A stretch of DNA of 64,000 nt from Cyanobium sp. M30B3. Its GTDB lineage: Bacteria; Cyanobacteriota; Cyanobacteriia; PCC-6307; Cyanobiaceae. The DNA lies in NCBI GenBank assembly GCA_018399015.1, contig CP073761.1, positions 3,010,465 to 3,074,464 on the forward strand, written 5' to 3'. The position numbers and the translations under genes were made by a program. The number at the start of each line of letters is the position of its first letter. The first letter of the stretch is position 1. A model generated the notes under the pieces. That model saw nothing but the letters and a program-made list of their open reading frames with translations, made no database searches and was not told the DNA's origin. Below, one piece after another: positions 5,618 to 41,229 of this stretch.

Positions 5618-6262
<645 letters not shown>

Positions 6263-6814
6263 GCCGGCCGAGCCAGCCGGGCACGGCCCCCGGCCCTGTG
6301 TGCACCAGATGCAGACGCGGGGCCTGCACATCCACCACCCAGTAGTGGGGGATGCCCGCAGCGGCATAGAGGCGAGCCTTGGCCTCCAGATCGAACACCA
6401 GGCTGGAATCAGCCACCTCAATCACCAGGGCGGTCTCGGCCGCGGTGGGGTGGGCATGCCAGTAGTCGTCGTCCCGGCGGGCCACCAGGGCGAGGTCGGG
6501 CTCAGGCTCATGGGCCGGTCCGAGATCGAGCGGGGCCCTAACCCGCAACTGCAGGGGCTCCTGGGGTGCAGCAGCCAGACAGGCCTCGATCGCGCGGATC
6601 AACCGGTGCACCACCGCCGTGTGCCGCGTGCCCTTGGCGATCACCTCCAGCACCTCACCATCGATCAACTCCAGACGCTGTTCCGGCACGGCCTCGCACA
6701 GCCGGTGGAACTGCTCCACGGTGAAGCGCGCAGGGCACCGGGCCGGATGCCGAAGAGCAGCAGCGGGGCTGGCGACCGTCATGGCTTCAGCCTAACGACG
6801 GTGCCGCCTGCAGC

Positions 6815-13132: not shown

Positions 13133-13954
13133 TCAGGGCCGTGTCCCGTCAGAAGAAACCACCGATGCATGGGGCCAGCTCGCCTGCCAGGCCTTGAACT
13201 GCCGCAGCCAGTTCTCGTTGAGGGTGTCGGACTGGCGACGAAGTGGGGCAGGCGGAACGGCATGATCGGCAAGGCCTAGATGATCGTATAAGGCGCGGAT
13301 CGTTGCCTCGTAAGCATCGGAAAGATCCTCATAGTGGATGGTGAAGGGCTGGATGCCAAGTGCTTGAAAATGGTTGTCCCAACCTTCATCCCACTTTCGT
13401 GCCATGGCGAGGTAGTGCGCGATCTGCTCGGGCCGAAACGTGGGGATCGATCGTGCCGAGCCTGCGCTGGTCCACTGACCGGTCTGTGCGGCCCTGCTCC
13501 ATGACACCGCTTGACGTTCGTGATCGAGGCGCCGGATCCGTAGCCAGGTGATGGGAGCACCCCAGTAATTGAAATCGAGCCCCCGTGCCAGCAGCACGCC
13601 TGCATAGTCGCCCCACATCACCTTCAGACTGAGCACCCCCTGAGCGCCCGTCTCTCGCCGGCCGATCCGATCGAGCATCTTCACAATCTCTTCCGTGGAG
13701 TAGGCGCTGCGAGGCATGGCCTGACCGGGCGAGCGTGCCTCCAGGATCTGACGGAGCGATGGTCTCGCTTGCAGCATCTCCAGATTCGACAATCGGCGCA
13801 GAGCTTCTTCATGAAACAGTTCATGGGCTCTTCTTCCCATCGCACCCGTCCGGGCGAGCGCGGCGGCCAGCAGAGTGCTGCCGGTGCGGCAGCTGGCAGC
13901 GAGGACAACAACGCGGCTGGGCCAGCGATCAGCGGCGACGGACAACGGCACCAA
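13133..13954 (-). CDS. Stf0-type (trehalose 2-sulfotransferase-like) sulfotransferase
   Basis: PAPS-binding loop VVVLAASCRTGSTLL. The C-terminal block HYEDL...LGL....P..PLRRQSD.LNENW..QF matches the Stf0 family signature as I recall it. TTG/GTG start. Confidence 0.75.
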   Translation of the reverse strand: MVPLSVAADRWPSRVVVLAASCRTGSTLLAAALARTGAMGRRAHELFHEEALRRLSNLEMLQARPSLRQILEARSPGQAMPRSAYSTEEIVKMLDRIGRRETGAQGVLSLKVMWGDYAGVLLARGLDFNYWGAPITWLRIRRLDHERQAVSWSRAAQTGQWTSAGSARSIPTFRPEQIAHYLAMARKWDEGWDNHFQALGIQPFTIHYEDLSDAYEATIRALYDHLGLADHAVPPAPLRRQSDTLNENWLRQFKAWQASWPHASVVSSDGTRP

Positions 13955-15047
13955 TGGGACCCACCAGCCAGAGAAAATGATTCAACCTCACGGGCCAGCT
14001 GGGTGCACTCCGCATCAGCCACCAGGCCATGGATGCCCGAGATATCACCGCGGCAGCTCCCTTCAGGCGCAGCCGATCCGCGTGCACCTTGGTGAGCGAC
14101 AGGCAGCCGGCCCAGGCCTCTGCCGCGAGCCGGGTGGAGCGCCGATCGATGGGAACCCCGTCGATCAGATCGGGAGACAGGTGGGCGGCGGTGGCCAGGG
14201 CTAGGCGCAGGTTGGACTGGCGGCATGCCAGATCCCGCACCCGCTGCAGGCCGCAGCATTCGCTCAGCTCGATGATGTCCACCAGATGGCGCAGGGTTGG
14301 CCAGGCCTCCTTGCGGCCATGCTGGGCCAGGTGCTCCAGGGCCTGCAGGGGCGCCAGGGTCCGCACCCCCTGCCCCACTGCGGGCAGAGCGACCGACTGG
14401 CTCAGGGCCTGTTCGAAGGAAAAGGAGAACTCCCGGCCCACATGGCCTAGGCGCCAGTGCAGATCGACGTCGGAGTGTCTGGGGTGGGTGAGGGTGAGCT
14501 CGTAGCTGAAGCGCACCAGGATTCCCCAGCGCCAGCCATCCCCCTGCTGCGGCAGGGTCCGGTGCTGCTCACTGCGCCGCCAACCGGCTCTGGCCAGGGC
14601 CGATTCCGCGGCACCCAGATCCGAGGCGCGTACCCAGACATCGACATCGCCGCGGCCTCGGGTGGCGGGTTGCCGGTGGCTCAGGGCCGGCAGGCACACC
14701 CCCTTGACCACGAGATGGTCCACCCCGGCCACGCTCAGTGCCTGGGCCGCCGTAACAGTGCCCACGATGTTGGCCAGCCCCAGGAGGTGCTCCTGCCGCC
14801 GCAGGGCCTGAAGCTTCGCCACGGCATCCGGCGGCAGGCCTAGCGGATCAGCCCAGGGGGTCAGCAGCGGAATCACGCGGTGACGCGCGATCGCCTCGAT
14901 CAGGTCGTCGGTGCTGGCGGCGCTGGGAGGCGGCAGCGTCAACGGCGCCAGCGCAGACCCCGGATGGCGTTGCTGCAACACCCGGCTGACGGCCGTCGCC
15001 ACCCAGCGGCTCGCGGCCAACGGAACGGCAGCCCGGGCGGTGCTCAT
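13929..15047 (-). CDS. Nucleotidyltransferase-fold protein (NTP_transf_5-like), catalytic motif retained
   Basis: Trimmed to the ATG at 15045-15047, which overlaps the upstream stop (ATGA). VVKGV..., RGRGDVDVWVRASDL..AE.AL.RAGW is the G-x-D-x-D nucleotidyltransferase core. DVDLHWRL follows. Confidence 0.65.
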   Translation of the reverse strand: MSTARAAVPLAASRWVATAVSRVLQQRHPGSALAPLTLPPPSAASTDDLIEAIARHRVIPLLTPWADPLGLPPDAVAKLQALRRQEHLLGLANIVGTVTAAQALSVAGVDHLVVKGVCLPALSHRQPATRGRGDVDVWVRASDLGAAESALARAGWRRSEQHRTLPQQGDGWRWGILVRFSYELTLTHPRHSDVDLHWRLGHVGREFSFSFEQALSQSVALPAVGQGVRTLAPLQALEHLAQHGRKEAWPTLRHLVDIIELSECCGLQRVRDLACRQSNLRLALATAAHLSPDLIDGVPIDRRSTRLAAEAWAGCLSLTKVHADRLRLKGAAAVISRASMAWWLMRSAPSWPVRLNHFLWLVGPIGAVVRRR

Positions 15048-16009
15048 CGCTCCAGCTGGGCGAGCAAGGCCGCCGGAGCGGGGTCGTCCACCAGCTCGCC
15101 GGAGCCGATCAGACGGGTGCGGAAAGCCTGCGGGAGTCTTCTGTGGCGAGACCTGGCCTGAAGTCTGGCCGCCACGCCTTCCGTATCGCTCACGCGCAGC
15201 AGCTGCATGACGTCGGCCACCCACTGGGGGGAGAGGCGCTGGCAGGGCCGTGCGCTTTCCAGGATCAGCTGCAGCAGCAGATCGCCAGGGTGCTGCAGCT
15301 GCCTGACCGTGCCCGCGACCGCCAAGGGCTGAGCCCCCTGCCAGGCCATCGAGTCGGCCACGGCCCAGGGAGCCCCCAGGCAGAGTCGCAGCGGCTTCGC
15401 CGCGGCTGCGTCATCCGGCCCGGTGAAGCTCCAGTTGTCGCCCGCGGGCAGCAGCCGCCACCGCAGCCACCGGCGCACCCCCACCATGCGGGGCCGCCAG
15501 CCCAGCAGGGTCAGGGCTTGCGCCGCCTCGCTCCGATGCCGTGGTCCGACGGCCATGGTCAGCGTCTGAATGGGCCGGGACCCTACGTCGCCGCTCAGAC
15601 CGACCAGGGCAGCCTCCCCCACCAGCAGGAGCGGAATCCGGCGCTGAGCGAGCGCCTCGACCGCAGGACGGATGCTGTCCCACAGGGCTTGATTGCGCAC
15701 CCAGGTCCGCCGATACAGCCCCCTGACCCGGCCGGACACGCTGTCGTCCCTGGGAATCACGCCATCCCGGCGCACGAGCAGCGGCAGCAGCCGCTGCGAA
15801 GCGCTGTCGATCGCATCGAAATCCACCCGATGGCGCCATTCCTGCCAGGCGTCTTTTGCCACGGTGGGCGTCCCGAAGGCGGCACGCAGCAGCAGCCGAT
15901 GTTCAGGTGCCAGCGGAGCGAGCGGATCAGCCCTGATCAAGGGAGGCGCGGGCCTGTCGGCGCCGGTGATGGGCACGCACCACGGCCAGGAGATCGGTGT
16001 TCCCCGCAT
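15044..16009 (-). CDS. NTP_transf_5-like protein, degenerate subfamily (no D-x-D)
   Basis: It shares an N-terminal HRLLL...AW.EW motif with the gene at 24179-25093. The position equivalent to D-x-D reads TLTMAV. The start is uncertain (ATG 16009 or TTG 15940) and it overlaps the upstream GT2 gene. Confidence 0.5.
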   Translation of the reverse strand: MRGTPISWPWCVPITGADRPAPPLIRADPLAPLAPEHRLLLRAAFGTPTVAKDAWQEWRHRVDFDAIDSASQRLLPLLVRRDGVIPRDDSVSGRVRGLYRRTWVRNQALWDSIRPAVEALAQRRIPLLLVGEAALVGLSGDVGSRPIQTLTMAVGPRHRSEAAQALTLLGWRPRMVGVRRWLRWRLLPAGDNWSFTGPDDAAAAKPLRLCLGAPWAVADSMAWQGAQPLAVAGTVRQLQHPGDLLLQLILESARPCQRLSPQWVADVMQLLRVSDTEGVAARLQARSRHRRLPQAFRTRLIGSGELVDDPAPAALLAQLER

Positions 16010-16643
16010 GCGTGGCCCGCAGGCTGATGTTGGACGTGTGAACCCGACGGCGTGCGACAAGCTCAGGGAGCGTGGCCAGGCGCAGACCCTCGTGACGGGA
16101 GCGTGAAATCCAGTCGATGTTCGATTTTGTTCTGCGGGAGGCATCGAGGGGCCCCACCCGATCGAAGGCCTGTCGCCGCACCATCAGTGCTTGAAGCAGC
16201 TCCACCGGTCGGGGACCGAGCACGAGGCGGTAGCGGCGAGCCACCTCGGGGCCGAGTTCCGGGCTCACGAACTGCTCGACCAGGCCGAACACCCCATCCA
16301 ACTCGGGATGGGCCTCCAGATACTCCCGCCGGCAGGCCAGCGAGGAGGGGGTGCAGAGATCGTCGTGATCAAGAAAGGTCAGCAGCGTGCCTGTGCAAGC
16401 GGCGATGCCCCGGTTGATGGCGGCATATGAGCCGGCGTTCTCCTGCCGCACCACCCGCAGAGCCGGACCGTAGGCAGCCAGGATCTCTGGGGTGCGATCG
16501 GTCGAGCCATCGTCGACAACGACGATCTCCTCAGCCGGACGGCTCTGGGCCAGCAGCGAATCGAGGGCTTCGCGGATGTACCGCTCCCCGTTCCACACGG
16601 CCATGATCACGCTCAGGCGCTCGCCCTGCAGGCCTGTCGTCAT
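15927..16643 (-). CDS. Family 2 glycosyltransferase
   Basis: LSVIMAVWNGERYIREALDSLLAQ, EIVVVDDGSTD, FLDHDD (DxD) are present. Its ATG overlaps the kinase-like gene TGA (ATGA). Confidence 0.85.
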   Translation of the reverse strand: MTTGLQGERLSVIMAVWNGERYIREALDSLLAQSRPAEEIVVVDDGSTDRTPEILAAYGPALRVVRQENAGSYAAINRGIAACTGTLLTFLDHDDLCTPSSLACRREYLEAHPELDGVFGLVEQFVSPELGPEVARRYRLVLGPRPVELLQALMVRRQAFDRVGPLDASRRTKSNIDWISRSRHEGLRLATLPELVARRRVHTSNISLRATHAGNTDLLAVVRAHHRRRQARASLDQG

Positions 16644-17677
16644 GGCACCACCCCCTGCGCGAGGTCCTGCACCGCCGCCAGCACGCCGTCAGGGTGCGTA
16701 CCGAGCCGCAGGCGATGGCAGGGGAGCTCGCTCACCAGGCGGCGCAGGCCAGCCAAAGTGTTTCCTCCCCCTTCCTGCAGGGACCCCTCGACCAGGGAGC
16801 GCAGCGCCTGCCGGGAGGAGACGCGCTCCACGACCGTGCGCTCCTGCCCGCTGATCTCCAGCAAGGCCACCGCCCTCAGGGGTGCGCTGGGGATCAGGCC
16901 GGCAGCCGGGTCGAGCACGGTCTGGCCGGGCTCGATCTCAATCGCCAGGTGCTGCACGGCGGGGAGGCGGGCGAAGGCTTCCGGTTCCAGCTTCGCCAGG
17001 CCGAACACGGGGTAAGCCGTGGGCGACGGGTCGAACCGAACCAGGCAGGCATCATCCGCCAGGAAGCCCAGTCCAGCTGCCAACGCCGACATCGTGGTGG
17101 TGGATTTGCCAGACCCGCTGGCGCCGGCGAGGGCCACGGCACCAGCAGAGGAGGCCACGGCACCGGCATGCAGCAGGGCCATCCCATGGGCGTCGGCCCA
17201 CCAGCCGATCACGGTGCGCAGGGGGGAACGCCGCAGCCAGGCGGGAAGATCAAAAGCCGACGCAGCCTGAACGAAGACCCGGCCTTGCTGCCGGTCATAG
17301 ACGGTGAGCAGCCGCATCCAGCGGTCATAGGTGATGCGCAGCCGGCCCTGGGCCAGGCCCTGGATCGCCCTGGAGCGGCAGAAGGCGTCGTCTCCCCATG
17401 GCGGCGCAGGGGGGGCCACTCCCGTGGCCGCCCGATCCCAGCAATCGATCGTCAGCACCGGGACAGGGGCCTCGGAGGGCTGAGCCTCCCGGAAGGCATG
17501 CGCGAAGGCGGGGAAAAGGTGATCGGCCAGACCGGCTCCGGCGCAGCGCAACCTGATGGCGTGGCCACCAAGGTTGAGGTGCCGCAGCGCATGCCCCGGG
17601 GACGCGGCTGCAGCCTGATCGAAGGCGCGCCCCATGGCGGCAACGAAGGCATCGAGCTGGGCCTCAGTGGTAGGCAC
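16640..17677 (-). CDS. HPr kinase/phosphorylase-like P-loop protein (HprK-related kinase), copy A
   Basis: LHAGAV...GAVALAGASGSGKSTT (Walker A) is followed by GFLADD, as in the HprK C-terminal domain and the lasso-peptide/HPr-rel-type kinases. The GTG start abuts the PqqD-like stop (TGAGTG). Confidence 0.72.
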   Translation of the reverse strand: MPTTEAQLDAFVAAMGRAFDQAAAASPGHALRHLNLGGHAIRLRCAGAGLADHLFPAFAHAFREAQPSEAPVPVLTIDCWDRAATGVAPPAPPWGDDAFCRSRAIQGLAQGRLRITYDRWMRLLTVYDRQQGRVFVQAASAFDLPAWLRRSPLRTVIGWWADAHGMALLHAGAVASSAGAVALAGASGSGKSTTTMSALAAGLGFLADDACLVRFDPSPTAYPVFGLAKLEPEAFARLPAVQHLAIEIEPGQTVLDPAAGLIPSAPLRAVALLEISGQERTVVERVSSRQALRSLVEGSLQEGGGNTLAGLRRLVSELPCHRLRLGTHPDGVLAAVQDLAQGVVP

Positions 17678-18154
17678 TCAGCGATCCACCGCAGGGGCGG
17701 GCAGGGGCCAACCCGCCTCATCCACCTCGTGAATGGGATCGATCAGCAACAGATCCTCGAGATCCTCAAAACCCTGAAGCTGCGGTGGCGCGTAGGGGGC
17801 GCGAGGCTGATGGGGAGGCAAAACACCGTCGGTGCTGGGGCTGCCTTCGGCAGAGCTGGCGAGGCCGGAACTCAGCAGGGCCGCCACAAAGGACTCGACG
17901 TCGGCGCGGGCCTGGGCCTCATCCACCTCGAAGCGGGAGACAAGGGCCTGAACCATGGCATCGATGCCGCCACCAGCCGCAGCCACGCTCCAGCAATCGG
18001 CGCCAGCAGCCTGAATGGCGTAATAGGCCCCAGTCTCAAGATTGATGGCGATCACCTCATCCTCGAGACGCTCGTGATTGATCGCTGGACTAATCGAGAG
18101 ACGATTCATATCCGATTCGCAAAGTAGAAAAGGGCTGGAATTCAGGGGAGCCAT
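17678..18154 (-). CDS. PqqD-family (RRE-type peptide-binding) protein with a long C-terminal tail, copy A
   Basis: The core HERLEDEVIAINLETGAYYAIQAAGADCW...FEVDEAQARADVESFVAALLSSGL fits the PqqD/RRE fold pattern. A Ser/Pro linker then leads to LQGFEDLEDLLLIDPIHEVDEAGWP. The ATG at 18154 is 6 nt after the GT4 stop; an alternative ATG lies at 18109. Confidence 0.7.
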   Translation of the reverse strand: MAPLNSSPFLLCESDMNRLSISPAINHERLEDEVIAINLETGAYYAIQAAGADCWSVAAAGGGIDAMVQALVSRFEVDEAQARADVESFVAALLSSGLASSAEGSPSTDGVLPPHQPRAPYAPPQLQGFEDLEDLLLIDPIHEVDEAGWPLPAPAVDR

Positions 18155-18160
18155 TACGGC

Positions 18161-19285
18161 TCAGTGGACGGCCATGCGAAGGCCAGCGTAGATGGCTTCG
18201 CAGTGACGGACATATCGGTCGAGAGAATACTCCGACTCAGCACGCGCGCGCGCGGCGGCCCCCAGCCGTGCGGCACGCGTACGGTCCTCCAGGAGGGCGA
18301 CAACCGCCCTGGCCAGCGAAGGCACGTCGCCTTCGGGAACGAGCAGCCCGGTGACATCCGCCAGCACCGCCTCGTTCAACCCGGCGCAGTCGCTGGCCAC
18401 CACCGGCCGGCCGGCCCAGGCCGCCTCCAGGGCCACCAGGGGCAGTCCTTCGTAGCGCGAGGGCATCAGCACCAGGGCGCTCGCGGCCATCAGCTGACGC
18501 ACCGCATCCTCATTCTGCAGACCGAGGAACTGGATGGCGTCCTGCAGGCCCAGCTGGGCCGCCTGAAACTGCAGAGCCCTGGCATTGGGGCCCATACCGG
18601 CCACGAGCAGTCGGGCCATTGGCCGCTGCGCCCGGATCGCGACCATGGCCTCGATGGCGCGGTCGAACCCCTTCTGGCTCACGAGCCGGCCCACACAGAG
18701 CAGTTGGTCGGGATCGGGATCTCCTGCCTGGTGCTGCGGTGGCTGGATCCCGTTCGGGAGGACTTCGAGCCGGTCCGCGATCGCAGGGGCGTACGCCAGG
18801 GTGTCATGGAGACAGCTGCGGGAGACGGCAGTGACGCGATCGGCCGACTCCAGCAGGCGCCCCATGCGCGTGAATGACATCGGCTTCAGATGCTGCAGTC
18901 GCAGATGTTGCGTCATCACGTTGTGAATGCTGACGACCAACGGCGGTCGCTGCGATGCCGTCGCCTGCGGCGTGCGCTGGTAGAACCAGAGCAGCGCCCC
19001 CATGTCATGGGAGTGGACCACCGTGGGTTGATACGAATGGAGGATTGCGCGCAGGCGGCGATCTACGGCCAGAAGGGCTCGCGGATCCCGTGCCTGGATC
19101 GGCTGGATCAGATTCAGGCGATGCACACGCACGCTCTCCACCTGAACCGGCCCACCGACCTCTGATGTGATGATCTCAACCTCATGCCCGTGCTCGCTCA
19201 GCAGGCGACAGGCCTGGAGCAGCAGCATTTCGATGCCACCCACACCAGCAGGAAGATAGGCGCTGGTGAGAAAAAGGATGCGCAT
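18161..19285 (-). CDS. Family 4 (GT-B) glycosyltransferase
   Basis: MRILFLTSAYLP..GG.E, and C-terminal PSRYEGLPLVALEAAWAGRPVVAS (E-x7-E region) are present. It is the first gene of the minus-strand operon. Confidence 0.85.
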   Translation of the reverse strand: MRILFLTSAYLPAGVGGIEMLLLQACRLLSEHGHEVEIITSEVGGPVQVESVRVHRLNLIQPIQARDPRALLAVDRRLRAILHSYQPTVVHSHDMGALLWFYQRTPQATASQRPPLVVSIHNVMTQHLRLQHLKPMSFTRMGRLLESADRVTAVSRSCLHDTLAYAPAIADRLEVLPNGIQPPQHQAGDPDPDQLLCVGRLVSQKGFDRAIEAMVAIRAQRPMARLLVAGMGPNARALQFQAAQLGLQDAIQFLGLQNEDAVRQLMAASALVLMPSRYEGLPLVALEAAWAGRPVVASDCAGLNEAVLADVTGLLVPEGDVPSLARAVVALLEDRTRAARLGAAARARAESEYSLDRYVRHCEAIYAGLRMAVH

Positions 19286-19588
19286 GAGAACGATCAAAGG
19301 AACGGGGCGGCAACGAAGGATGGGGTGCGCCTGCCTTGATCGCCCTTGGATGCGATGGCCTCCGGGTGCTGTCTACGGCGATCCGCAAGTGCTACGACCT
19401 ACGACCTCCGCCCATCCTCTCAAATTCAAGCCCGGTGGAAACACAGCGCCGACCATTCCGAGGCAAGCGCTCTTCCCCAACTGAGCAGGGTGCGAGTAAG
19501 TTATCTGCGTCTTCCGACGCTGTTTCGTTGACAGAGCTTGCCGGGAGCGGCAGGCTGAGGAAAAACTAACCCTTCACAATCGGAGTTT
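19286..19588. promoter_or_regulatory. Divergent intergenic control region between the two PqqD/kinase operons
   Basis: This is the only sizeable non-coding gap between the oppositely oriented operons. It has a TTGACA hexamer at 19528-19533 and GGAG at 19582-19585 before the ATG at 19589. No convincing -10 box was seen. Confidence 0.3.
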
Positions 19589-20014
19589 ATGGCCAACATC
19601 CGGTTTGCTGATACCGCGAGATTTCCGCACGATACTATCGACGGCGAAACCGTCCTGATCGACTCCGAGAAGGGACACCTGTTCCTCTTTCTGGGGATTG
19701 GCCCTCAGATCTGGGAGCGCCTGCTCACGGGAGCTTCGGTGGATGGGCTCGTGAACGAAGTGACCGCACGCTATGGAATGGCAGCAGCGGCGCCAACCCG
19801 GGTGTTTCTGGATGCACTCGAACAGGCACAGATGCTCCACGATGGATCCTCACCCTCGGCTGCTCCCGCTACCACCTCGACTGCCTGGCCAGAGAGCTTC
19901 GTGGCTCCAACGTTGGAACGTTATGACCAGATCGCGGACATCATCTCCATGGATCCCATCCATGAGGTCGATCCCAGCAAGGGATGGCCTCACCTCCCGG
20001 GCGAGAAGGCGTGA
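19589..20014 (+). CDS. PqqD-family (RRE-type) protein with a long C-terminal tail, copy B
   Basis: The core HDTIDGETVLIDSEKGHLFLFLGIGPQIWERLL...LVNEVTARYG...FLDALEQAQML is followed by a Ser/Pro/Ala linker, then LERYDQIADIISMDPIHEVDPSKGWP. Confidence 0.7.
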   Translation: MANIRFADTARFPHDTIDGETVLIDSEKGHLFLFLGIGPQIWERLLTGASVDGLVNEVTARYGMAAAAPTRVFLDALEQAQMLHDGSSPSAAPATTSTAWPESFVAPTLERYDQIADIISMDPIHEVDPSKGWPHLPGEKA

Positions 20015-20991
20015 GTGCGGGAACAGGCAGGCCTTTTTCCGTCCGGATTGCCGGCAGGGCGCTGAGGGTCACCGGGGATGCGGGCACCGATGCGATCCGA
20101 CCCGCATTCGCAGGCGTGATCGAACCAGTGGGGCTTGAAAAAGCAGCCCTGCCAAGCCTGTGCGTGAGCGTGCTCCCGGATCCGGCATCAAAGCCCGGGT
20201 GGGCCGGATTGGAGATCGGATCCCATCGTGCTCCGGACGGTTGCCTTGCCATCCTTCGGCGCGGACCGTCGAGCGTCGAGCAGTTCATCCCGGGGGCAGA
20301 GCCGAGCCTGCTTTTGGAGGCATCGCCGGCTGCGCTGGCCAGTGGAGACCTGCGATCCCAACCGGCCCACCACGCACTCGCAGCCTGGCTGTCCGGTCCC
20401 CGGATGCAGATGGTCCACGCGGCAGCGGTGGCGCTCGATGGGCGGGCCGCGCTGTTCATCGGGGTTGGAGGACGCGGGAAAACCACAACTGCTCTGGTCT
20501 GTGCCCAGGCGGGATTCGGATTCCTTGGCGACGACCTCTGCGTGGTCGAGGCTGGAGATCCGGCGCGGGGAACTCCGCCAACAGTCCATGGCGTCTACGC
20601 GACATCGAAGCTGAATGTTGATTCCCGGCAACGCCTGCAGGCCAGCGACTGGCCGGTGCTCGGGATCACACCCAGCGGAAAATCTGCGGTCGCACTGCCC
20701 CCGCAGATCACCTTCCAACGCTCCGCCCGTCTGGTGGCGATCGTGGCAGTTCGGGCGGGCGACACCTCCGTCCCGCAGCCGCGTCGCCTCCCGCCGCGCC
20801 AGGCCATCCAGATGCTTGGTTCCACGGCCCTGCCAATCGCCAGCGGATCGGGCACCCCGGCACACTGGCTTTCCACCGCAGCGGCGCTGGTGCGGGAAGT
20901 CCCCGCATTCGAGCTCGGGCTTGACTGGGAACTGGATCGCGTCCTTTCGGCCGTGGCCGGGCTGTTGAAGCCCGGCGGCAACCAGGCATGA
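19984..20991 (+). CDS. HPr kinase-like P-loop protein, copy B
   Basis: VHAAAV..DGRAALFIGVGGRGKTTT (Walker A) is followed by GFLGDD. The start is either the ATG at 19984 or, more likely, the GTG at 20011, which overlaps the PqqD-like stop (GTGA). Confidence 0.72.
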   Translation: MASPPGREGVSAGTGRPFSVRIAGRALRVTGDAGTDAIRPAFAGVIEPVGLEKAALPSLCVSVLPDPASKPGWAGLEIGSHRAPDGCLAILRRGPSSVEQFIPGAEPSLLLEASPAALASGDLRSQPAHHALAAWLSGPRMQMVHAAAVALDGRAALFIGVGGRGKTTTALVCAQAGFGFLGDDLCVVEAGDPARGTPPTVHGVYATSKLNVDSRQRLQASDWPVLGITPSGKSAVALPPQITFQRSARLVAIVAVRAGDTSVPQPRRLPPRQAIQMLGSTALPIASGSGTPAHWLSTAAALVREVPAFELGLDWELDRVLSAVAGLLKPGGNQA

Positions 20992-22088
20992 ACCCGACCC
21001 CACCCTTCGACACGCCGGTGGTGGTCATCCTGTTCAACCGACCGCACCGCATCCACGAACTGATTGGCGTCCTGCGCGACGTACGACCCGCCCGGATCCT
21101 GGCGATTGCCGACGGTCCACGGGCCTCTCACCCGGCTGATGCCGCCGCCTGCAGCCAGGCCAGGGCCGTCCTCGACGGAATCGACTGGCCCTGTTCGATC
21201 GAACGCGAGTTCGTGGAAGCCAACCTCGGCTGCGACCGCCGCATCGTCTCCGGACTCGACTGGGCCTTCTCCCGCGTTGATCGCGCCATCGTCCTCGAGG
21301 ACGACATCCTTCCTCACCCCAGCTTCCTTCCGTGGGCAGCAAGCATGCTCGATCGCTTTGGGCCCGATCCCTCGATTGGCATCATCTCCGGCCGGAACCC
21401 GCTCGGGACGTGGGGTGACGCCACCCAGGACCACATACGCGCTCCATACGGCAGCATCTGGGGATGGGCGGCCACGGCACGGGTGTGGCGCCATATCCAT
21501 GCCTGCGACCTCAGCGGTGACCCAGCAAGTGCCGAGGCAGATCTCCAACGGAGCGGACTCGATCCGCTGCTGCAAGCCCACTGGACGGTCGCGCTGAAGA
21601 TGTTCCGCCGGGGCGAACTTGTGGCCTGGGATGTCCTCTTCTCACTCCGGCAAGCGATGCTCGGCCTTCACTCCATCCACTCACCCGTCAACCTGACCCG
21701 GAACACAGGCATAGGGGCCGAAGCCACCCGCACGCTCTACGAGGATGACTTCAGCGCATTGCTCAAAGCCCGGGAGGCGAGACCCCTGCAATCACCGGGA
21801 ACGGTTTACCAGCCAGAGCAGGCATTCGCCCGCGCTGCACTCACTGTTCAACTTCTCGCCCGATGCCGGAACCCGACGATGGCAGTCAGGCTCGCACGGA
21901 TGATCCAGCGCGGAACGCCGGTGCCACTCGATGAAGCAACCCGTCATCATCTGACGCCATTCCTCCACGCCCTCGAATCGCTCCCGCTGCTCGAGCACCT
22001 CGCGGATCAGGGCATGACTTCTCCGACATTTGACTGTTTGCTCGGGGCGATGCGGAAACTTGCCGCCAGCAGCCAGCCCAGCCCATGA
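20988..22088 (+). CDS. Putative glycosyltransferase (GT-A fold, GNT-I/HlpA-like)
   Basis: VVVILFNRPHRIHELIGVL, ILAIADGPR, and an IVLEDDILPHPSF acidic motif are present. ATGA overlap with the preceding gene. Confidence 0.55.
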   Translation: MNPTPPFDTPVVVILFNRPHRIHELIGVLRDVRPARILAIADGPRASHPADAAACSQARAVLDGIDWPCSIEREFVEANLGCDRRIVSGLDWAFSRVDRAIVLEDDILPHPSFLPWAASMLDRFGPDPSIGIISGRNPLGTWGDATQDHIRAPYGSIWGWAATARVWRHIHACDLSGDPASAEADLQRSGLDPLLQAHWTVALKMFRRGELVAWDVLFSLRQAMLGLHSIHSPVNLTRNTGIGAEATRTLYEDDFSALLKAREARPLQSPGTVYQPEQAFARAALTVQLLARCRNPTMAVRLARMIQRGTPVPLDEATRHHLTPFLHALESLPLLEHLADQGMTSPTFDCLLGAMRKLAASSQPSP

Positions 22089-22771
22089 ACCACCTAGTTC
22101 CCGTCTCCGTCATTGTTCCCGTACGCAACGCGGCTGCCCATCTCGCTGCAGCCCTCGCCAGTGTCCAATCGCAGCAACCCGCTCCCGCCGAGGTGATCGT
22201 CATCGATGGAGGATCCACCGACGACAGCGTCGCCATCGCGCGTGCCCACGCAATCCGGGTGATCGCCCAGGAGGGTCGGGGCCTCGCGGCGGCGCGGAAT
22301 CAAGCGATCCGCGCAAGCCAGCAGCCGAACATCGCGTTCTGCGACGGCGATGATCGCTGGGCACCGGGCGCGCTCGCCCGCCGGATGGACGCGCTGGCGA
22401 CGAACCCTCAAGCCTGGGTGGTTATCGGCCGGGTGATACGCGAACAACTCGCCAATACCGAGGCCTCCGCGGCGCAACTCGAACAAGTCGGCCGCCCGGT
22501 CCCAGGATTCACTCCGGGTGCCATGGTTGCTCGCCGAAAGACTTTCGAAGAAATCGGGTTCTTCGACGAGACTCTAAAGATCAGCGGCGACAGTGACTGG
22601 TTCATCCGTCTCCAGGAATCGCCCCGACCTGCCATCCGGATTGAGGATGTCGTCCTCTACAAGGGCGCACGAATGACTAGCCTCTCCGGCAACGTTGAGG
22701 CCTATCGCCTCGAACTCCTGACTGTGGCGCGCCGGTTTATCGGGCGAAGCCGGGGACAACCATTGCCATGA
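22085..22771 (+). CDS. Family 2 glycosyltransferase
   Basis: VSVIVPVRNAAAHL, EVIVIDGGSTDDS, FCDGDD are present. ATGA overlap at both ends. Confidence 0.85.
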   Translation: MNHLVPVSVIVPVRNAAAHLAAALASVQSQQPAPAEVIVIDGGSTDDSVAIARAHAIRVIAQEGRGLAAARNQAIRASQQPNIAFCDGDDRWAPGALARRMDALATNPQAWVVIGRVIREQLANTEASAAQLEQVGRPVPGFTPGAMVARRKTFEEIGFFDETLKISGDSDWFIRLQESPRPAIRIEDVVLYKGARMTSLSGNVEAYRLELLTVARRFIGRSRGQPLP

Positions 22772-24189
22772 AGCTCCTGCACATCATCCCTCGATTCATC
22801 GGCGGAGGCCCGGAGCGTCATCTGCTTGCCTTGGCTGAAGCCTGGCGGTCCGCTGGCCTGCAGACCCGCCAACGCATCCTCGTCCTCGACCCGCCTGCAT
22901 CGGCGCCACTCCTGATCAAGGCCCGACGTCTCGGAATCGAACTCCTGATTGCGCCCGATCTGTCCGCTATCCGGAACGCGATCGCCGAGGCTGACATCGT
23001 TGAGGTGGAGTTCTGGAATCACCCTCGCCTCCATGACCTCCTGCGTCAGGAACTGCCACAGGCACGCTGGATCCTGAGAAGTGCCGTAGCCGGCACCACA
23101 CCACCCCAGGTCCTGACCGAAGCAATCGGATCCGTCGCCGACATGGTGATCGTATCAACTGATGCAAGCCTGCAGACGCCGGCTGTCTGCGAAGCACGGG
23201 CAAGGAATTGCCGCCTCGAATCCATCCCTGCCCTGGCAGATATGAAACGCCTGGAAGGAATCACGGCCAGCCCTCACGTAGGCATCCGGGTCGGTTACCT
23301 CGGGCTCGTGGAACCCACCAAGATGCATCCGCGCTTCGCCAGGCTGGCTGCGCACATCACGAACCCGGAGGTTCAAATCGAGATTTATGGAGGGGGCTCC
23401 TGGAAGGCGGAACTTCAACAGCAGTTCGAAGGATTAGGGATGTCGGATCGAGTGAGGTTTCATGGCCACGTTGAGGACATTCGATCCGCCTTCGCCACGA
23501 TGGATATCTTCGGGTATCCGCTCGTCCCGGAAACATTTGCGACCAGCGAAAAGACAATCCAGGAGGCCATGTGGGCGGGAATTCCTCCGGTCGTCCTCGC
23601 CGGCACCGGTGCCACCCTGTTGGTCCAGCATGAACACACCGGACTCGTCTGCGAACACGAAGCGGACTACCCACATGCGATCGATCGCCTCGCCGGGGAT
23701 CCGATCCTGCGCCGACGGCTCGGCGAGGCAGCACATGCCTTCGCCAGAGAGACATTTGACCCTGTTCGCAACGCAGCACGGTTCCACGAGATCTTTGAAA
23801 CCGCGCTATCCCTTCGGAAGCGACCGCACGTCCCCCTGCCAGGACGCGATGCCCCCGGAGCACTGCGGTTTGTGCAAAGCCTCGGGATGCTCGGCCATGC
23901 CTTCCAAACCAGCCTGATGGCCGACACTTCGCTCTCGAAGGACCAGATTGGAGCCGCCGAAGACGCGATCCGCCATGCGTCCCCCGTCATGACGCAGGGC
24001 GAAGGCGGCATCGTCCACTATCGCAACACCTATCCCCAGGATCCTCATCTCCACTACTGGTGCGGATTGATTTCGCTGCAAGCCGGAAACTGGGATGGAG
24101 CCCGCCGGGAATTCGACGCAGCCATCCAACTCGGGTTGGACCGCGCCCGGGTCCAGGACCACCTCCCGAACCCAGCCCATGCAGCTTGA
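22768..24189 (+). CDS. Family 4 (GT-B) glycosyltransferase with a C-terminal helical (TPR-like) extension
   Basis: MKLLHIIPRFIGGGPERHLL, and the E-x7-E region ATSEKTIQEAMWAGIPPVV are present. The C-terminal extension of about 100 aa contains YWCGLISLQAGNWDGARREFDAAIQLG. Confidence 0.78.
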   Translation: MKLLHIIPRFIGGGPERHLLALAEAWRSAGLQTRQRILVLDPPASAPLLIKARRLGIELLIAPDLSAIRNAIAEADIVEVEFWNHPRLHDLLRQELPQARWILRSAVAGTTPPQVLTEAIGSVADMVIVSTDASLQTPAVCEARARNCRLESIPALADMKRLEGITASPHVGIRVGYLGLVEPTKMHPRFARLAAHITNPEVQIEIYGGGSWKAELQQQFEGLGMSDRVRFHGHVEDIRSAFATMDIFGYPLVPETFATSEKTIQEAMWAGIPPVVLAGTGATLLVQHEHTGLVCEHEADYPHAIDRLAGDPILRRRLGEAAHAFARETFDPVRNAARFHEIFETALSLRKRPHVPLPGRDAPGALRFVQSLGMLGHAFQTSLMADTSLSKDQIGAAEDAIRHASPVMTQGEGGIVHYRNTYPQDPHLHYWCGLISLQAGNWDGARREFDAAIQLGLDRARVQDHLPNPAHAA

Positions 24190-25093
24190 TCAAGGGATTG
24201 GTGCCGCTCACGGTCAGGTGTGGCGAGGACCAGAGCCCAATCGCCAGCACAGACTCCTCCTGACCGCCTGCCGCGAACCCACCGAGGCCGCTCTGGCAGC
24301 CTGGAACCGTTGGATCCAGACATGCCGCTTCAATGATCAGGACCCAGCCAGCTTCGAACTCGCCTCGCTGGCGGTCGGACGGCTCGGCGCACTGGCAGGG
24401 GAGGGATCAGAGGCTGTCCGCTGCCGCGGTTGGACCCGTCGCGCCTCTTTCTTCTCCAGGATGGCAACCGAGGCCACTGAGCGGCTGCAGGAAGCATCCC
24501 TTCGCCTTGGCCTGCCTCTGATCGGAGTCGGGGATATCGCGACCTTCAGAGCCGGCCTTCAGTTCTCAGGCCGTCCATTTCCGGTGCGATCCCTCGAATT
24601 TCACGTCCCTGGCGCCTCGAAAGACGACCTCAGGCAACTCCACGCCGCGGCCATGCAAGGGGCTGCCGGCGAAGCCATCCGCACCCGACGGCTCGCGTTG
24701 ATCCTCCGCCCGGACGCCAGGCACCCAGACGTCACCACACCCGCCGGACACATCGTGTGGCTCGCCAATCGCAACTGGTGTCGCTTTCCACCCGGCCGGA
24801 TCCGCTGGATCCTTGAGGTCGCTGCAATTCTGGAGTCAGCTGCCGAACCCGACATGCTGCCCCTTCAGGTCGTCGGTGAAGCATGTCGGATCGAGGCCAT
24901 CGCCGCAGTGGCCGAAGCCTTCCGCTGGATCCATGCCACGAGCCACGATCGCCGGCAACTGGATGCCCTTGTCACGGCCCTCTCTGCGCAACCCACTTCC
25001 TGCAGCTCCCGGATACGGCTCTGGCACGCTCGGCACCAGATCGGACTTGGCCTGCGGCCCCGTTACTCCCGGTATCTTCAACAAGCGCGGTAA
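24179..25093 (+). CDS. NTP_transf_5-like protein, degenerate subfamily
   Basis: Trimmed to the ATG at 24179. The N-terminus HRLLLTACREPTEAALAAWNRW parallels EHRLLLRAAFGTPTVAKDAWQEW of 15044-16009. The D-x-D position reads SLEFHV. Confidence 0.5.
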   Translation: MQLDQGIGAAHGQVWRGPEPNRQHRLLLTACREPTEAALAAWNRWIQTCRFNDQDPASFELASLAVGRLGALAGEGSEAVRCRGWTRRASFFSRMATEATERLQEASLRLGLPLIGVGDIATFRAGLQFSGRPFPVRSLEFHVPGASKDDLRQLHAAAMQGAAGEAIRTRRLALILRPDARHPDVTTPAGHIVWLANRNWCRFPPGRIRWILEVAAILESAAEPDMLPLQVVGEACRIEAIAAVAEAFRWIHATSHDRRQLDALVTALSAQPTSCSSRIRLWHARHQIGLGLRPRYSRYLQQAR

Positions 25094-25100
25094 GGGGTTG

Positions 25101-25401
25101 TCATGCATCCCTGCTTAGAGAGCCTGTCTCAGAGACGCGTGAGCTTTCCAATAGCGCTCCAGAGTGCGGCGCAACCCCTCGTCCAACAACGTCGATGAGC
25201 TCCACCCCGGCCACACCAGAACGCGAATGGCAGGCAGGCAAGCACGAAAGCCTCGGGCCGAAGCTGAAGATGATCAGCCCAGGGGCCTCCCACATCGAAG
25301 AACAGGGTTTCCGTCGGTCGTTTTGCCTGCTCCCAGATCACCTGGGCGGCTGCGCGTCGACCAACAGGTGAATCCTCCAGCCTCAGGTTGCTGATACGCA
25401 T
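25101..25401 (-). pseudogene. Frameshifted, truncated remnant of a paralog of the PP-loop protein gene next door
   Basis: ORF 25129-25401 (RISNLRLEDSP..RRAAAQVI...LFFDVGG...PEAFVLACLPFAFWCG) parallels the first 70 or so aa of 25414-26565 (RIELRQLRRP..RLEAVVL...IWLETDG...ADAFLPILVPAAMASG). The similarity continues in another frame (GVELIDVV... vs GLPLRIDAPV...) and stops before any PP-loop. Confidence 0.4.
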
Positions 25402-30731: not shown

Positions 30732-31208
30732 CTGGATGGAAGTGTTACTCAAGAGAAGGCCTTGGCAAGGGCCCCTCCGGATCCAGTCCAGACACAAAAA
30801 CATTCGTTTTTCGTCATGGCGCACGCAGTGCGGTACCTATGCAAGGAGTTTCTGGATTCGGGGCACTGCGCAGGGGCGAGGTGCGGCCCTGCATCAAGGG
30901 GAAGTTCTAGACTTTCAACGCATTGGCAGCTGCGCTTCTGACTGGAACTGGTCCACGCTTCTGGGGAAAGGTAAAGTCACTGATAAGATCACAGTTAATG
31001 GTCCAAGGCCGGTCCAAGCGAACGCAGCAACCTCTCCAAGGCACTTAGAGAAATGACAGCTTCAAACAGAGCCATCCGATAACATCTACTCGCTTTCAGC
31101 CCAAGAAAAACAATTTTTTGTGAAAACCGGCTCATCCTCATCCTACGCTAGCTGCATCACAATGATCCATCGCGCCCACTCTCTAGATAAAGGCTGGAGC
31201 AATCGTTG

Positions 31209-32672: not shown

Positions 32673-32674
32673 TT

Positions 32675-32710
32675 ACTATTAGGACTATTAGGACTATTAG
32701 GACTATTAGG
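32675..32710. repeat. Perfect 9-bp tandem repeat (actattagg x4)
   Basis: Read directly from the sequence. It begins 3 nt after the oxidoreductase stop codon. Confidence 0.95.
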
Positions 32711-33515: not shown

Positions 33516-33523
33516 CGGCAACA

Positions 33524-34006: not shown

Positions 34007-34080
34007 TGATGCTATTGCCACTGATGAAGTCCTCCTGTAGTCTTAAATAAATCCCATGTAATGCAAAAAGCTGAGCATTT

Positions 34081-35034: not shown

Positions 35035-35039
35035 ACACG

Positions 35040-36068: not shown

Positions 36069-36157
36069 GAACGCCGGAAACCAGCATTGTTTAACCCTGT
36101 GTAATCTGGGAGCCTACGATCAAATAATTCTACCCAAAGCATCCACTTTCTAGTACT

Positions 36158-41218: not shown

Positions 41219-41229
41219 CATCTACCGGC

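Follow-up and report, generated by a model that had tools for sequence, protein, structure and literature searches.

Two divergent operons lie between positions 13133 and 25093 of a 64-kb stretch (the window, in its full length) of the chromosome of Cyanobium sp. M30B3, a metagenome-assembled genome. Operon A is on the minus strand and operon B on the plus strand, and each encodes a PqqD family protein next to a P-loop kinase related to HPr kinase/phosphorylase (HprK/P). The data show that both operons are examples of a conserved cassette. It is a variant of the tailoring systems built from a RiPP (a peptide made by ribosomes and modified after translation) recognition element (RRE), an HprK-like kinase and an NTP transferase, and what is new in it is a natural recognition sequence fused in cis to the RRE, with no precursor, protease or cyclase. 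The definition of the cassette and its kinship to these systems are well supported. An earlier note on this DNA had proposed a RiPP-style tailoring toolkit, which was the right family of ideas, but it missed the most informative feature, the leader-like tail of the PqqD proteins.

RREs with a leader-like tail

The PqqD proteins of operons A and B match PF05402 with 48.7 and 32.8 bits, respectively, against a cut-off of 23.4. The winged helix-turn-helix in the AlphaFold2 (AF2) model of protein A (pLDDT 88) superposes on TbiB1. Foldseek gave TbiB1, in both of its leader complexes, and TfuB1 as the best matches of this model (TM-score 0.86-0.91, with 0.91 for TbiB1; 21-30% identity), and comparison of the family profile with the PDB gave TbiB1 (6e-19), TfuB1 (1e-9), PbaB1 (2e-8) and LppB (2.5e-8). 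The assignment of the cassette PqqD protein as a lasso-B1-type RRE is well supported.

The cassette proteins are 140-160 aa long, as against 88-119 residues for the B1/RRE chains that they match in the PDB. Between the RRE and a C-terminal tail runs a linker rich in A, P and G (median length 22 residues). The consensus of the tail, anchored on DPIH, is [F/Y](-18)-x-x-P(-15)-x-L(-13)-x-[K/R]-[Y/F]-[T/D/S]-D-M-x-[D/E]-L-L-L-L-D(0)-P-I-H-[E/D]-V-D-E-x-G-W-P; about seven variable residues after GWP end the protein. In a fixed-register logo of 77 relatives, each position of the motif is kept at fixed spacing in 64-77 of the proteins, and the short core [F/Y]xxPxL-x12-DPIHEVDExGWP is near-invariant. 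A profile of the tail alone matched 3002 representative clusters (50% identity) among 1.84 billion proteins, 1050 of them at E<=1e-10. Among the best 150 matches listed, most are proteins of 130-165 aa with the motif at the C terminus.

The motif [Y/W]xxPx[L/V] is the recognition motif of the RREs of lasso peptides and of linear polyphosphorylated peptides (LPPs) (PMC10368454; PMC13381572), and in lasso leaders it is found at positions -17 to -12 (PMC10368454). When LppB binds its leader, Asp70 hydrogen bonds with the Tyr, Phe74 packs on the Pro, and Met78 and Leu83 form a second pocket (PMC13381572). LppB D70, F74, M78 and L83 align with D70, F74, L78 and L83 of the window RRE. The AF2 model of protein A gives the YxxP segment a pLDDT of about 92, far above the adjacent linker, and places a beta-strand right after the motif, as in the solved complexes; the DPIH...GWP segment has a pLDDT of 69-76. 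The tail profile found nothing significant in the PDB, and the TbiA leader, fifth-best with E 1.3, is suggestive only.

The aromatic residue of the tail covaries with RRE position 70. Among 293 non-identical proteins, 145 pair a tail Tyr or Trp with Asp or Glu at position 70, 114 pair a tail Phe with a non-acidic residue (Ala, Ser, Gly or other), and 22 are discordant. On a neighbour-joining tree of the RRE domain, made with the position-70 column omitted, both characters change about 26 times each, and concordance is seen in 27 of the 40 closest contrast pairs. The window has one tail of each type: tail A has Tyr with Asp70 in its RRE, and tail B has Phe, in keeping with the non-acidic class. 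The pattern reads as that of a predicted hydrogen bond between Tyr-OH and Asp that is gained and lost as a unit.

Taken together, the RRE type, the aligned contact residues, the AF2 model and the covariation suggest that the tail very probably occupies the leader groove of its own RRE. Two points count against this docking: it is read from pLDDT, secondary structure and covariation, and the covariation is partly confounded by phylogeny, the neighbour-joining tree being crude. LppB is insoluble without its leader (PMC13381572), which gives a simple rationale for fusion in cis.

Distribution of the cassette

A genome scan with the kinase profile (one genome per species) gave 121 confirmed relatives, and the best 80 loci were analysed with 10-kb flanks, many of them cut by contig ends. 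Mapping of the window proteins onto all open reading frames (ORFs) of these loci with phmmer showed a colinear order: PqqD-type RRE, HprK/PEPCK-fold kinase (PEPCK, phosphoenolpyruvate carboxykinase), one or more soluble family 2 glycosyltransferases (GT2s) and NTP_transf_5. The PqqD gene is directly upstream of the kinase gene in 66 of the 80 loci and a GT2 gene is directly downstream in 60. One to five copies of GT2 are found in 69 loci (none was detected in 11), NTP_transf_5 lies within 8 kb of the kinase in 58, and PqqD, GT2 and NTP_transf_5 occur together in 45. This association is far above chance.

Optional parts of the cassette are a GT4 glycosyltransferase, a GT13-like GT-A protein, an Stf0 sulfotransferase and an MsbA-like ABC exporter. 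The exporter is orthologous and within the operon in about 15 of the 80 loci, from several phyla, and is absent from both window cassettes. All-versus-all clustering of the ORFs from the 80 loci gave no further family, besides this exporter, in more than 12 loci. Low-frequency neighbours are short-chain dehydrogenases/reductases (SDRs), a gluconolactonase-like protein, GlcNAc 2-epimerase, methyltransferases and a PMT_2 GT-C.

The cassette is not peculiar to cyanobacteria and occurs in more than ten phyla. Besides Cyanobacteriota (Oscillatoria, Anabaena, Microseira and Cuspidothrix) it is found in Acidobacteriota, Chloroflexota, Planctomycetota, Chlamydiota, Patescibacteria, Desulfobacterota, Actinomycetota, Alpha- and Gammaproteobacteria, Gemmatimonadota and Verrucomicrobiota. 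The cultured cyanobacterium Crinalium epipsammum PCC 9333 has a complete cassette on the 44-kb mobilizable (MOBP) plasmid pCRI9333.04 (NC_019735.1, 5896-17248; locus L091). Its genes are annotated as PqqD family protein, nucleotidyltransferase, HPr kinase, two GT-A proteins and ABC transporter, and the cassette also holds an FkbM methyltransferase, an SDR, a gluconolactonase-like protein, a tetratricopeptide repeat (TPR) protein and a second NTP-transferase. This cassette is a good experimental entry point. A group II intron adjoins it.

Kinase-GT2 fusions of about 565-603 aa are encoded in Desulfobacterales and Chloroflexota (L009, 9983-11791; L013, 9980-11776; L031, 192-1889) and by one database protein (P0033), and a 542-aa protein (P0307) fuses GT4 to the RRE-tail. 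These fusions point to physical coupling of the components. Long apparent N-terminal fusions of the RRE in L047 and L078 are Arg-rich artefacts of ORF extension. A role in anti-phage defence was also considered and rejected, PADLOC giving no match except a 15-bit P-loop hit.

Genes of operons A and B

The features of the two operons are as follows.

13133-13951, minus strand: Stf0-type sulfotransferase of operon A (PF09037, 4e-24; L001 orthologue, 6e-56)
13929-15047, minus strand: NTP_transf_5 protein A1, catalytic motifs intact (PF14907, 2.5e-28, 99.8 bits)
15044-15976, minus strand: NTP_transf_5 paralogue A2, catalytically degenerate (PF14907, 5e-8, 33.3 bits, barely above the cut-off of 31.2; family hidden Markov model (HMM), 5e-51)
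15927-16643, minus strand: soluble GT2 of operon A (PF00535, 1e-28; no transmembrane segment)
16640-17677, minus strand: HprK/PEPCK-fold P-loop kinase A (invariant residues, PDB profile matches and Foldseek)
17678-18109, minus strand: RRE-tail protein A, PqqD family, 143 aa (PF05402, 1e-12)
17705-17794, minus strand: cis recognition tail of protein A, YAPPQLQGFEDLEDLLLIDPIHEVDEAGWP (tail motif)
18161-19285, minus strand: GT4 glycosyltransferase of operon A (PF00534, 7e-38; PF13439, 9e-28; L001 orthologue, 1.5e-105)
19363-19516, minus strand: degenerate 5' stump of the divergent NTP_transf_5 gene of cassette B (tblastn with the L085 gene)
19589-20014, plus strand: RRE-tail protein B, PqqD family, 141 aa (PF05402, 9e-8)
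19898-19990, plus strand: cis recognition tail of protein B, FVAPTLERYDQIADIISMDPIHEVDPSKGWP (tail HMM, 6.5e-13; Phe type)
19984-20991, plus strand: HprK/PEPCK-fold kinase B (TIGR04352, 1e-5; TIGR04355, 3e-5; P-loop, DD and K kept)
20988-22088, plus strand: predicted GT13-like (GnT-I-like) GT-A protein, 366 aa (family profile against the PDB; no Pfam or NCBIfam match)
22085-22771, plus strand: soluble GT2 of operon B (PF00535, 3.5e-27)
22768-24189, plus strand: GT4 with a C-terminal helical-repeat region, operon B (PF00534, 1e-18; L029 orthologue, 4e-87)
24179-25093, plus strand: NTP_transf_5-like protein without catalytic core, 304 aa, operon B (family HMM, 4.4e-15)

All 13 genes of this region are intact ORFs, at or near the positions in the earlier note, and its description of two divergent, tightly coupled operons is borne out. 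Its domain calls, including those made by eye (HprK-like, GT-A and NTP_transf_5-like), are supported by profiles, by AF2 and Foldseek and by family HMMs. The junctions include TGAGTG between PqqD-A and kinase A and four ATGA overlaps, as had been described; the longer overlaps number four (50, 23, 31 and 11 nt, with starts as called on a 99%-identical contig) rather than the three claimed. The ORF of PqqD-A could start at 18154, yet its homologues are 143 aa long. Paralogues of operons A and B share 25-33% identity, and the two RRE-tail proteins 22-26%.

Several of the glycan enzymes have matches to curated models, all under the respective cut-offs: the best partial matches are to BshA for the GT4 of operon A (1e-34) and to MftF for the GT2 of operon B (1e-22), and the Stf0 protein matches trehalose 2-sulfotransferase (NF047724, 3.6e-24). 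The GT4 of operon B has a sub-threshold TPR_2 match (19 bits, cut-off 27). Transmembrane segments are absent from all window cassette proteins, and neither a lipid-carrier priming phosphoglycosyl transferase nor a flippase (Wzx) nor a polymerase (Wzy) is encoded in the cassette.

Identity of the enzymes

The matches of the kinases to NCBIfam models are only local ones, to HprK-related kinases A and B (TIGR04352 and TIGR04355; 4e-9 to 3e-5) and to HprK, and Pfam PF07475 is matched under its cut-off with 13-14 bits (E 0.07 for kinase B). An alignment of 14 family members shows invariant H170, G185xxGxGK(S)T, D208-D209 and K229, with G185, G188, G190, K191 and T193 of the P-loop invariant. When the family profile was compared with the whole PDB the best matches were HprK/P structures (1jb1, 2qmh and 1ko7; 1e-4), over the H..G.SG.GKS...DD motif. 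Foldseek with the AF2 model (pLDDT 90, pTM 0.89) matched ATP-PEPCK over both domains (E 3e-12) and the catalytic C-domain of HprK/P (2e-5). The signature residues, of the pattern H-x-(G/A)-x-V ... G-x-S/G-G-x-GKS/T ... (L/V)xxDD, and the modelled fold thus both place the kinases in the HprK/P C-domain/PEPCK-like superfamily. PEPCK and HprK are related proteins, and the label 'HprK-like' is therefore correct at the superfamily level.

The 366-aa protein of operon B has no Pfam or NCBIfam match, even at E 10. It has 363 homologues, and among the 120 listed there is no Pfam domain except GT2 domains in two longer proteins. A family profile made from 28 sequences matched the GT13 enzymes POMGNT1 (1.2e-4) and GnT-I (1.4e-3) in the PDB over the NRP...EDD region, and E104-D105-D106 are invariant in the family.

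The consensus of the NTP_transf_5 family is KG...DxD...DLHW, with the DxD pair kept in 47 of 63 aligned members. NTP_transf_5 proteins have a Pol-beta-like fold and not the fold of sugar-1-phosphate nucleotidylyltransferases, as is known for the family and from modelling of PsmN. Three genes of the window had been called NTP_transf_5-like, and this stands for the family assignment; catalytic motifs are present in one of them only. A1 retains KG..DxD..DLHW. In A2, which is orthologous to a gene of the L001 cassette (1.4e-51) and passes the PF14907 cut-off marginally, GE..TxT..AKPL replaces these residues and all catalytic motifs are lost. The protein encoded by 24179-25093 has no Pfam match, and the family HMM aligns just at both ends (profile positions 11-97 and 237-309), leaving the KG/DxD/DLHW region unaligned. 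Pairs of an intact and a degenerate NTP_transf_5 gene are found in many cassettes (L015, L020, L024, L032, L033, L055, L061, L071 and the window). The degenerate copies keep the conserved N-terminal region of the family, and the dead copy is likely to be a pseudo-enzyme or structural subunit.

Search for precursor, cyclase and protease genes

A six-frame search of 83 sequences (loci and window) with the tail HMM found exactly one copy per cassette, always at the C terminus of the RRE, and no free-standing peptide with the tail motif. Small ORFs with YxxPx[LVI] upstream of the RRE gene are not enriched (7 versus 2, in 75 loci). A 44-aa ORF at 19350-19484 on the plus strand (MRWPPGAVYGDPQVL... 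/ MRWPPGAVYGDPQVLRPTT...) has YxxPxVL, like LPP and lasso leaders; its position, beyond the block shared with L085 and antisense to the NTP_transf_5 stump, led us to judge it a chance match. A Y..P.I match upstream in L029 is inside larger overlapping ORFs. Most tail-only database proteins of 46-90 aa start within the RRE or linker, or at non-ATG codons, so that they look like fragments or miscalled starts. Five proteins of 47-62 aa (P0220, P0229, P0326, P0295 and P0217) have a Met just before the tail motif and no RRE, and could be stand-alone tail peptides or miscalled fragments.

Neither the scanned ORFs of the window nor the recurrent neighbours in the 80 loci include an Asn-synthetase-like cyclase (PF00733-type), a transglutaminase-type B2 protease, a precursor gene or a radical-SAM gene, and there is no ATP-grasp or SPASM gene in the window. 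No peptidase was found in either operon or in the scanned window ORFs, no peptidase family recurs in the 80 loci, and the low-frequency neighbours include no signal peptidase, Asn synthetase, transglutaminase-like protease or radical-SAM enzyme. The earlier note had seen neither a lasso cyclase nor a transglutaminase-like protease, a radical-SAM enzyme or a precursor, and this is upheld for the whole window and for the recurrent neighbours in the 80 loci.

Comparison with known systems

Nearest to the cassette is the LPP family of Bacillota (lppA-K-B-S-D-N; Popov et al., Nat Commun 2026; PMC13381572). Both have a lasso-type RRE and a YxxPx[V/L] motif bound in the groove through the same contacts (Asp70 and Phe74), which for the cassette is predicted from the LppB profile match, the aligned contact residues and the covariation. 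Their kinases and NTP transferases are probably of the same classes. Neither has a macrolactam cyclase, the MsbA-like exporter of LPP clusters has counterparts in the minority of cassette loci given above, and LPP clusters too are embedded in glycosyltransferase-rich polysaccharide loci. The HprK/PEPCK fold and NTP_transf_5 would liken the cassette enzymes to LppK, LppN and PsmN by class, and similarity of the kinase sequences is limited to the P-loop region.

There are clear differences. LPP clusters have a SpI-like leader peptidase and a separate precursor, LppA, with an N-terminal YxxPxVLxHQxIxFETxxS; the cassette has neither, and its motif is fused to the C terminus of the RRE. After the motif, the cassette has DMxxLLLLDPIHEVDExGWP where LPPs have LxHQxIxFETxxS, so that 18 residues past the aromatic there is an invariant Asp in the cassette and the phosphorylated Ser3 in LppA. 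GT2 is a conserved core gene of the cassette, unlike LPP clusters, and LPPs are reported to be restricted to Bacillota.

The biochemistry of these relatives is known in part. LppK polyphosphorylates Ser3, 18 residues after the leader Tyr (PMC13381572); BsfK also acts on Ser3 of the core, and the spacing from the aromatic to the phosphorylated Ser is 18 residues in LppA and 19 in BsfA. The HprK-like kinases PsmK and PadeK poly-phosphorylate a Ser, and PsmK D158A/D159A is dead (PMC6993621); this essential DD motif corresponds to D208/D209 of the cassette kinase. PsmN, an 'uncharacterized NTP transferase', is required for the addition of one or two hexoses to the Ser phosphate (PMC6993621). The precedent given in the earlier note, of a kinase and a nucleotidyltransferase acting in turn on a lasso peptide Ser, was thus correct.

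The phosphorylated and glycosylated lasso peptides paeninodin, pseudomycoidin and Bsf (PMC6993621, PMC10368454) share with the cassette a B1-type RRE, YxxPxL, a DD-dependent HprK-like kinase, an NTP transferase needed for the phosphate hexose and an ABC exporter, and some proteobacterial lasso-type clusters have sulfotransferase and GT genes (gene list of PMC10040529). However, the cassette lacks the Asn-synthetase-like cyclase, the B2 protease and the precursor gene, and its product cannot be a lasso.

The recurrent pairing of PqqD with a kinase of the HprK superfamily is also seen in HPr-rel-A (TIGR04352), with HprK-related kinase B (TIGR04355) and in SynChlorMet (ScmC/ScmD), with weak local P-loop similarity to the cassette kinases. 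The cassette differs in having no radical-SAM/SPASM or ATP-grasp partners, and by the curated cut-offs it belongs to none of the three. The earlier note had brought in HPr-rel-A; TIGR04352 gives 29.7 bits for kinase A and 24.8 for kinase B against a cut-off of 200, over about 55 residues round the P-loop, and the HPr-rel-A PqqD model is absent from the NCBIfam scan of both PqqD proteins (E<=0.1). These proteins match instead lasso-type PqqD models (41 and 23 bits, below cut-off), GeoRSP, ScmD and WgkC. TIGR04355 gives 36.0 bits (A) and 23.4 bits (B) against 200. ScmD, which in SynChlorMet goes with two radical-SAM/SPASM enzymes, gives 20.1 and 14.4 bits against 100, and PF27840 (ScmC) appears only as a faint or weak precomputed match on some homologues.

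Fusion of a leader to a RiPP enzyme has a parallel in engineered proteins, in which the leader is tethered in cis to a lanthipeptide synthetase or cyclodehydratase. There too the tether gives a constitutive leader-bound state. These are laboratory constructs that act on leaderless cores in trans, whereas the fusion in the cassette is natural and ancient and is on the RRE itself. A description of the cassette was not found in the literature searched; a 2025 survey of RREs mentions RRE-GT2 fusions, not the cassette arrangement. The system had been regarded as uncharacterized in the earlier note, which agrees with the RefSeq label of kinase A (QVL52789.1), 'hypothetical protein KFB97_15710'.

A model for the cassette and its alternatives

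The RRE very probably binds its own tail in the canonical leader groove and is therefore permanently 'loaded', displaying the segment that follows the motif, an amphipathic helix and DPIHEVDExGWP. By analogy with paeninodin, pseudomycoidin, Bsf and LPPs, this segment would recruit the kinase, the NTP_transf_5 enzyme and the GTs. A phosphate-linked glycan would be built up in the cytoplasm on the presented polypeptide, with the GT2, GT4 and GT13-like enzymes extending it. In type A it would be sulfated by the Stf0 protein, a relative of enzymes that sulfate trehalose. Where there is an ABC exporter, export of the product would follow. The most economical acceptor would be the RRE-tail protein, as a self-presenting precursor or carrier. 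We give this explanation as a whole, with its inferred steps, an even chance. Among the possible roles of the RRE-tail protein, that of the substrate or carrier that receives the modification ranks first; this proposal, made by analogy, is tentative and falls somewhat short of an even chance.

Several observations weigh against this model. The linker and the tail lack a conserved Ser, Thr or Tyr. Tail position -9 is Thr or Ser in 54 of 77 proteins, yet it is Glu in window A and Asp in window B; the only hydroxyl in the window A tail is that of the motif Tyr, and Ser and Thr are both absent from 22 of 293 linkers. The characterized relatives are strictly Ser kinases, and LppK rejects Thr and Tyr (PMC13381572). 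It is therefore difficult to reconcile these data with a classical phosphorylation of the tail. Conservation of the tail goes far beyond that of usual RiPP cores and fits a docking element equally well as a substrate. The full-length structure of the kinase is closest to PEPCK, a small-molecule kinase, with the HprK-like RiPP kinases only distant relatives, and the kinase has a weak FomB match. PsmN may act indirectly (PMC6993621), and the activity of LppN has never been shown (PMC13381572). Finally, NeuB, a CMP-sugar synthetase and a pyruvyl transferase share a large glycan island with both window cassettes.

Two more conventional acceptor sites were considered and rejected. The linker is not Ser/Thr-rich (Ser 7.7%, Thr 6.9%, neither in the 22 linkers mentioned above), and a C-terminal Ser like that of paeninodin is not indicated, the residues after GWP being variable, with any Ser in just 77 of 293 proteins. 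Given this lack of a conserved hydroxyl residue, three options are possible: an unconventional acceptor (Asp or His) is used; a GT acts first and the kinase then phosphorylates the sugar; or the RRE-tail protein is a scaffold and the acceptor is another molecule.

The last of these options can be stated more fully. An unmodified, self-liganded RRE would serve as an adaptor, with DPIHEVDExGWP docking or activating the kinase, the NTP_transf_5 protein and the GTs, which would act on an unlinked peptide, protein or small acceptor, much as leader peptides allosterically activate RiPP enzymes. The extreme conservation of the tail across phyla, with no conserved hydroxyl acceptor, is in keeping with this, as are the dead NTP_transf_5 paralogues, which suggest structural subunits. 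Past YxxPxV, the LPP leader does not touch the RRE, and this part has been proposed to address the enzymes (PMC13381572), and the insolubility of leaderless LppB means that a cis leader may just stabilize the RRE. However, there is no other conserved ORF in or beside the cassette, the filled groove leaves no obvious route by which the RRE could recruit a second peptide, and the compact stand-alone cassettes, such as that of Rhabdothermincola, hold no alternative acceptor. We regard this alternative as possible but doubtful.

It is unlikely that the cassette is an accessory polysaccharide or glycolipid module, in which the kinase acts on a sugar or glycan together with NTP_transf_5, GT2/GT4 and Stf0, and the PqqD-like protein is a structural or regulatory subunit. 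Such a module would account for the position of the window cassettes inside a glycan island (13-54 kb) with lower GC at third codon positions (GC3), for the trehalose-sulfating relatives of Stf0, for the occasional sugar-modifying neighbours (SDR, gluconolactonase, GlcNAc 2-epimerase and PMT_2 GT-C) and for the similarity of the kinase to PEPCK and FomB, both small-molecule kinases; the MsbA-like exporter could flip a glycolipid. It leaves unexplained, however, why the most conserved partner of the kinase is a lasso-B1-type RRE with a covarying leader pocket and a cis motif. Additionally, a lipid-carrier priming enzyme, Wzx/Wzy and membrane proteins are all missing from the cassette, which is also found outside glycan loci, and the fold of NTP_transf_5 is Pol-beta-like and not that of a sugar-1-phosphate nucleotidylyltransferase.

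A more radical form of the self-modification model, which we consider quite improbable, is that chaperone, leader and core are one polypeptide and that the invariant Asp-Pro of DPIH, at the same 18-residue distance from the aromatic as the Ser3 that LppK phosphorylates, is the reactive site, giving a precursor-free and protease-free RiPP-like system. Two chemistries are possible: the kinase could form an acyl-phosphate on the Asp, or the Asp-Pro bond could cleave itself through a cyclic anhydride, by analogy with FlhB/YscU, which autocleave after the N of NPTH. The outcome would be an activated carboxyl or a freed peptide of about 20 residues (PIHEVDExGWP), to which NTP_transf_5 and the GTs would add a phospho- or ester-linked, sometimes sulfated glycan before export by the ABC transporter.

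Origin of the two cassettes

The two operons had been taken for an old duplication. The data show instead that the window holds two independently acquired cassettes of about 6 kb that lie side by side, because each block occurs alone elsewhere with unrelated flanks. The cassette A block (13182-19300, minus strand) has 80.3% DNA identity over 6.1 kb to positions 3424-9532 of L083, a picocyanobacterial contig that carries A alone, with psbA and DUF1651 nearby. The cassette B block (19420-25217, plus strand) has 85.8% DNA identity over 5.8 kb to positions 9440-15233 of L085, and L085-L088 hold B alone in another neighbourhood. The flanks are unrelated in both comparisons, and tblastx of the region upstream in L083 against the window gave noise only.

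In L085-L088 an intact, divergent NTP_transf_5 gene (417 aa) is directly upstream of the PqqD gene. Residues 3-72 of the L085 protein align, with a deletion, to the stump at 19363-19516 (tblastn; the protein E of 0.23 is weak), and the B-type DNA block begins at 19420, within this stump. The spacer between the operons, which had been taken as a divergent promoter region, is thus largely the stump of an NTP_transf_5 gene of cassette B, and cassette A therefore abuts a truncated cassette B. Cassette A thus truncated the catalytic nucleotidyltransferase gene of B. Cassette A looks complete. Cassette B, without a catalytic NTP_transf_5 of its own, is either decaying or borrowing the A1 enzyme.

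Relatives in distant phyla give the same picture. Kinase A is 55% identical to a kinase of the actinobacterium Rhabdothermincola salaria, compared with 26-27% to kinase B, and R. salaria has the same six-gene set (Stf0, GT4, PqqD, kinase, GT2 and NTP_transf_5) amid unrelated genes. The acidobacterial locus L029 shares PqqD, kinase, the 366-aa protein and GT4 with cassette B, including orthologues of the GT13-like protein and of the repeat-tailed GT4. An ancient duplication in place, with the mirror-image pair working as one doubled toolkit, would fit the divergent orientation, the common PqqD-then-kinase order, the low identity of the paralogues and a dependence of B on the nucleotidyltransferase of A, but it is very improbable given the sharp borders of two blocks that each occur alone at 80-86% identity, the closer actinobacterial relative of kinase A and the stump in the spacer.

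Other loci may bear traces of rearrangement. An integrase-like fragment flanks the L083 cassette and its Stf0 gene is split by an insertion sequence (rve) (2505-3044, 9309-9820), a state that fits recent mobility and decay. L089 and L090 resemble copies that were fragmented or rearranged. Metagenomic contig L090 (6811-13381) has a second inverted pair, with GT4 and then PqqD on each strand, and no kinase is recognizable after the first PqqD gene; rearrangement of a double cassette or an artefact of assembly may account for this contig.

Genomic setting in Cyanobium

Housekeeping genes flank the region on the left (argJ, gatB, a Na/Ala symporter, a DAO-type oxidase and ndk; GatB is QVL52779.1) and on the right (arginine decarboxylase and alaS). 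A Uma2-family (putative restriction endonuclease-like) gene is found at 6216-6782 (minus strand), between argJ and gatB. Approximately 13-54 kb of the window is an island with reduced GC and GC3 that is rich in glycan genes: pyruvyl transferase, several GT2s, NeuB, epimerase, UDP-sugar dehydrogenase, CMP-sugar cytidylyltransferase, an ABC exporter and a GT2-GT87 fusion.

Within the island, 31206-43936 (plus strand) is a low-GC stretch (0.51-0.62) that encodes an amine oxidase-like flavoprotein, GNAT, NeuB (nonulosonic acid synthase), GT2, an epimerase/dehydratase, UDP-sugar dehydrogenase, a DUF4910/DUF2172 protein, CMP-sugar cytidylyltransferase and an HD protein. The stretch resembles a sialic/nonulosonic-acid glycan module and was probably gained horizontally. 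The ABC exporter (ABC_membrane and ABC_tran) is followed by the 762-aa GT2-GT87 fusion at 48864-52990 (plus strand). This exporter (48864-50765) was rejected as a cassette exporter, its similarity being generic (1e-42, compared with 1e-116 to 1e-161 inside the cassette exporter group).

Five sizeable ORFs of the island have no significant Pfam match: 25414-26565 (minus), 28960-30645 (minus), 34081-35034 (plus), 40178-41218 (plus) and 45883-47661 (plus). Weak matches link the 561-aa ORF to an integrase core (rve; E 0.026) and the 592-aa ORF to capsule synthesis; one relative of the 383-aa protein lies beside a cassette in Aestuariivirga (locus L010).

Significance

RREs are used as a handle for RiPP genome mining that is independent of RiPP class, on the assumption that the precursor is encoded separately. 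In the cassette the recognition sequence is instead fused to the RRE, and this natural family is large, with at least 3,000 clusters at 50% identity. The covariation of Tyr/Asp with Phe/small residues is an independent, evolution-based confirmation of a leader-RRE contact seen in crystal structures. The family is of interest as very large, phylogenetically broad and mobile, with the plasmid of C. epipsammum PCC 9333 among the tractable cases. Should the RRE-tail protein be its own substrate, the cassette would make peptide-linked phospho-glycans by a new route, as a protein-primed glycoconjugate assembled in the cytoplasm; should it be an adaptor, it would exemplify, in nature, activation by a leader in cis. 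Either way, tailoring chemistry of the LPP and paeninodin type would extend well beyond Bacillota.

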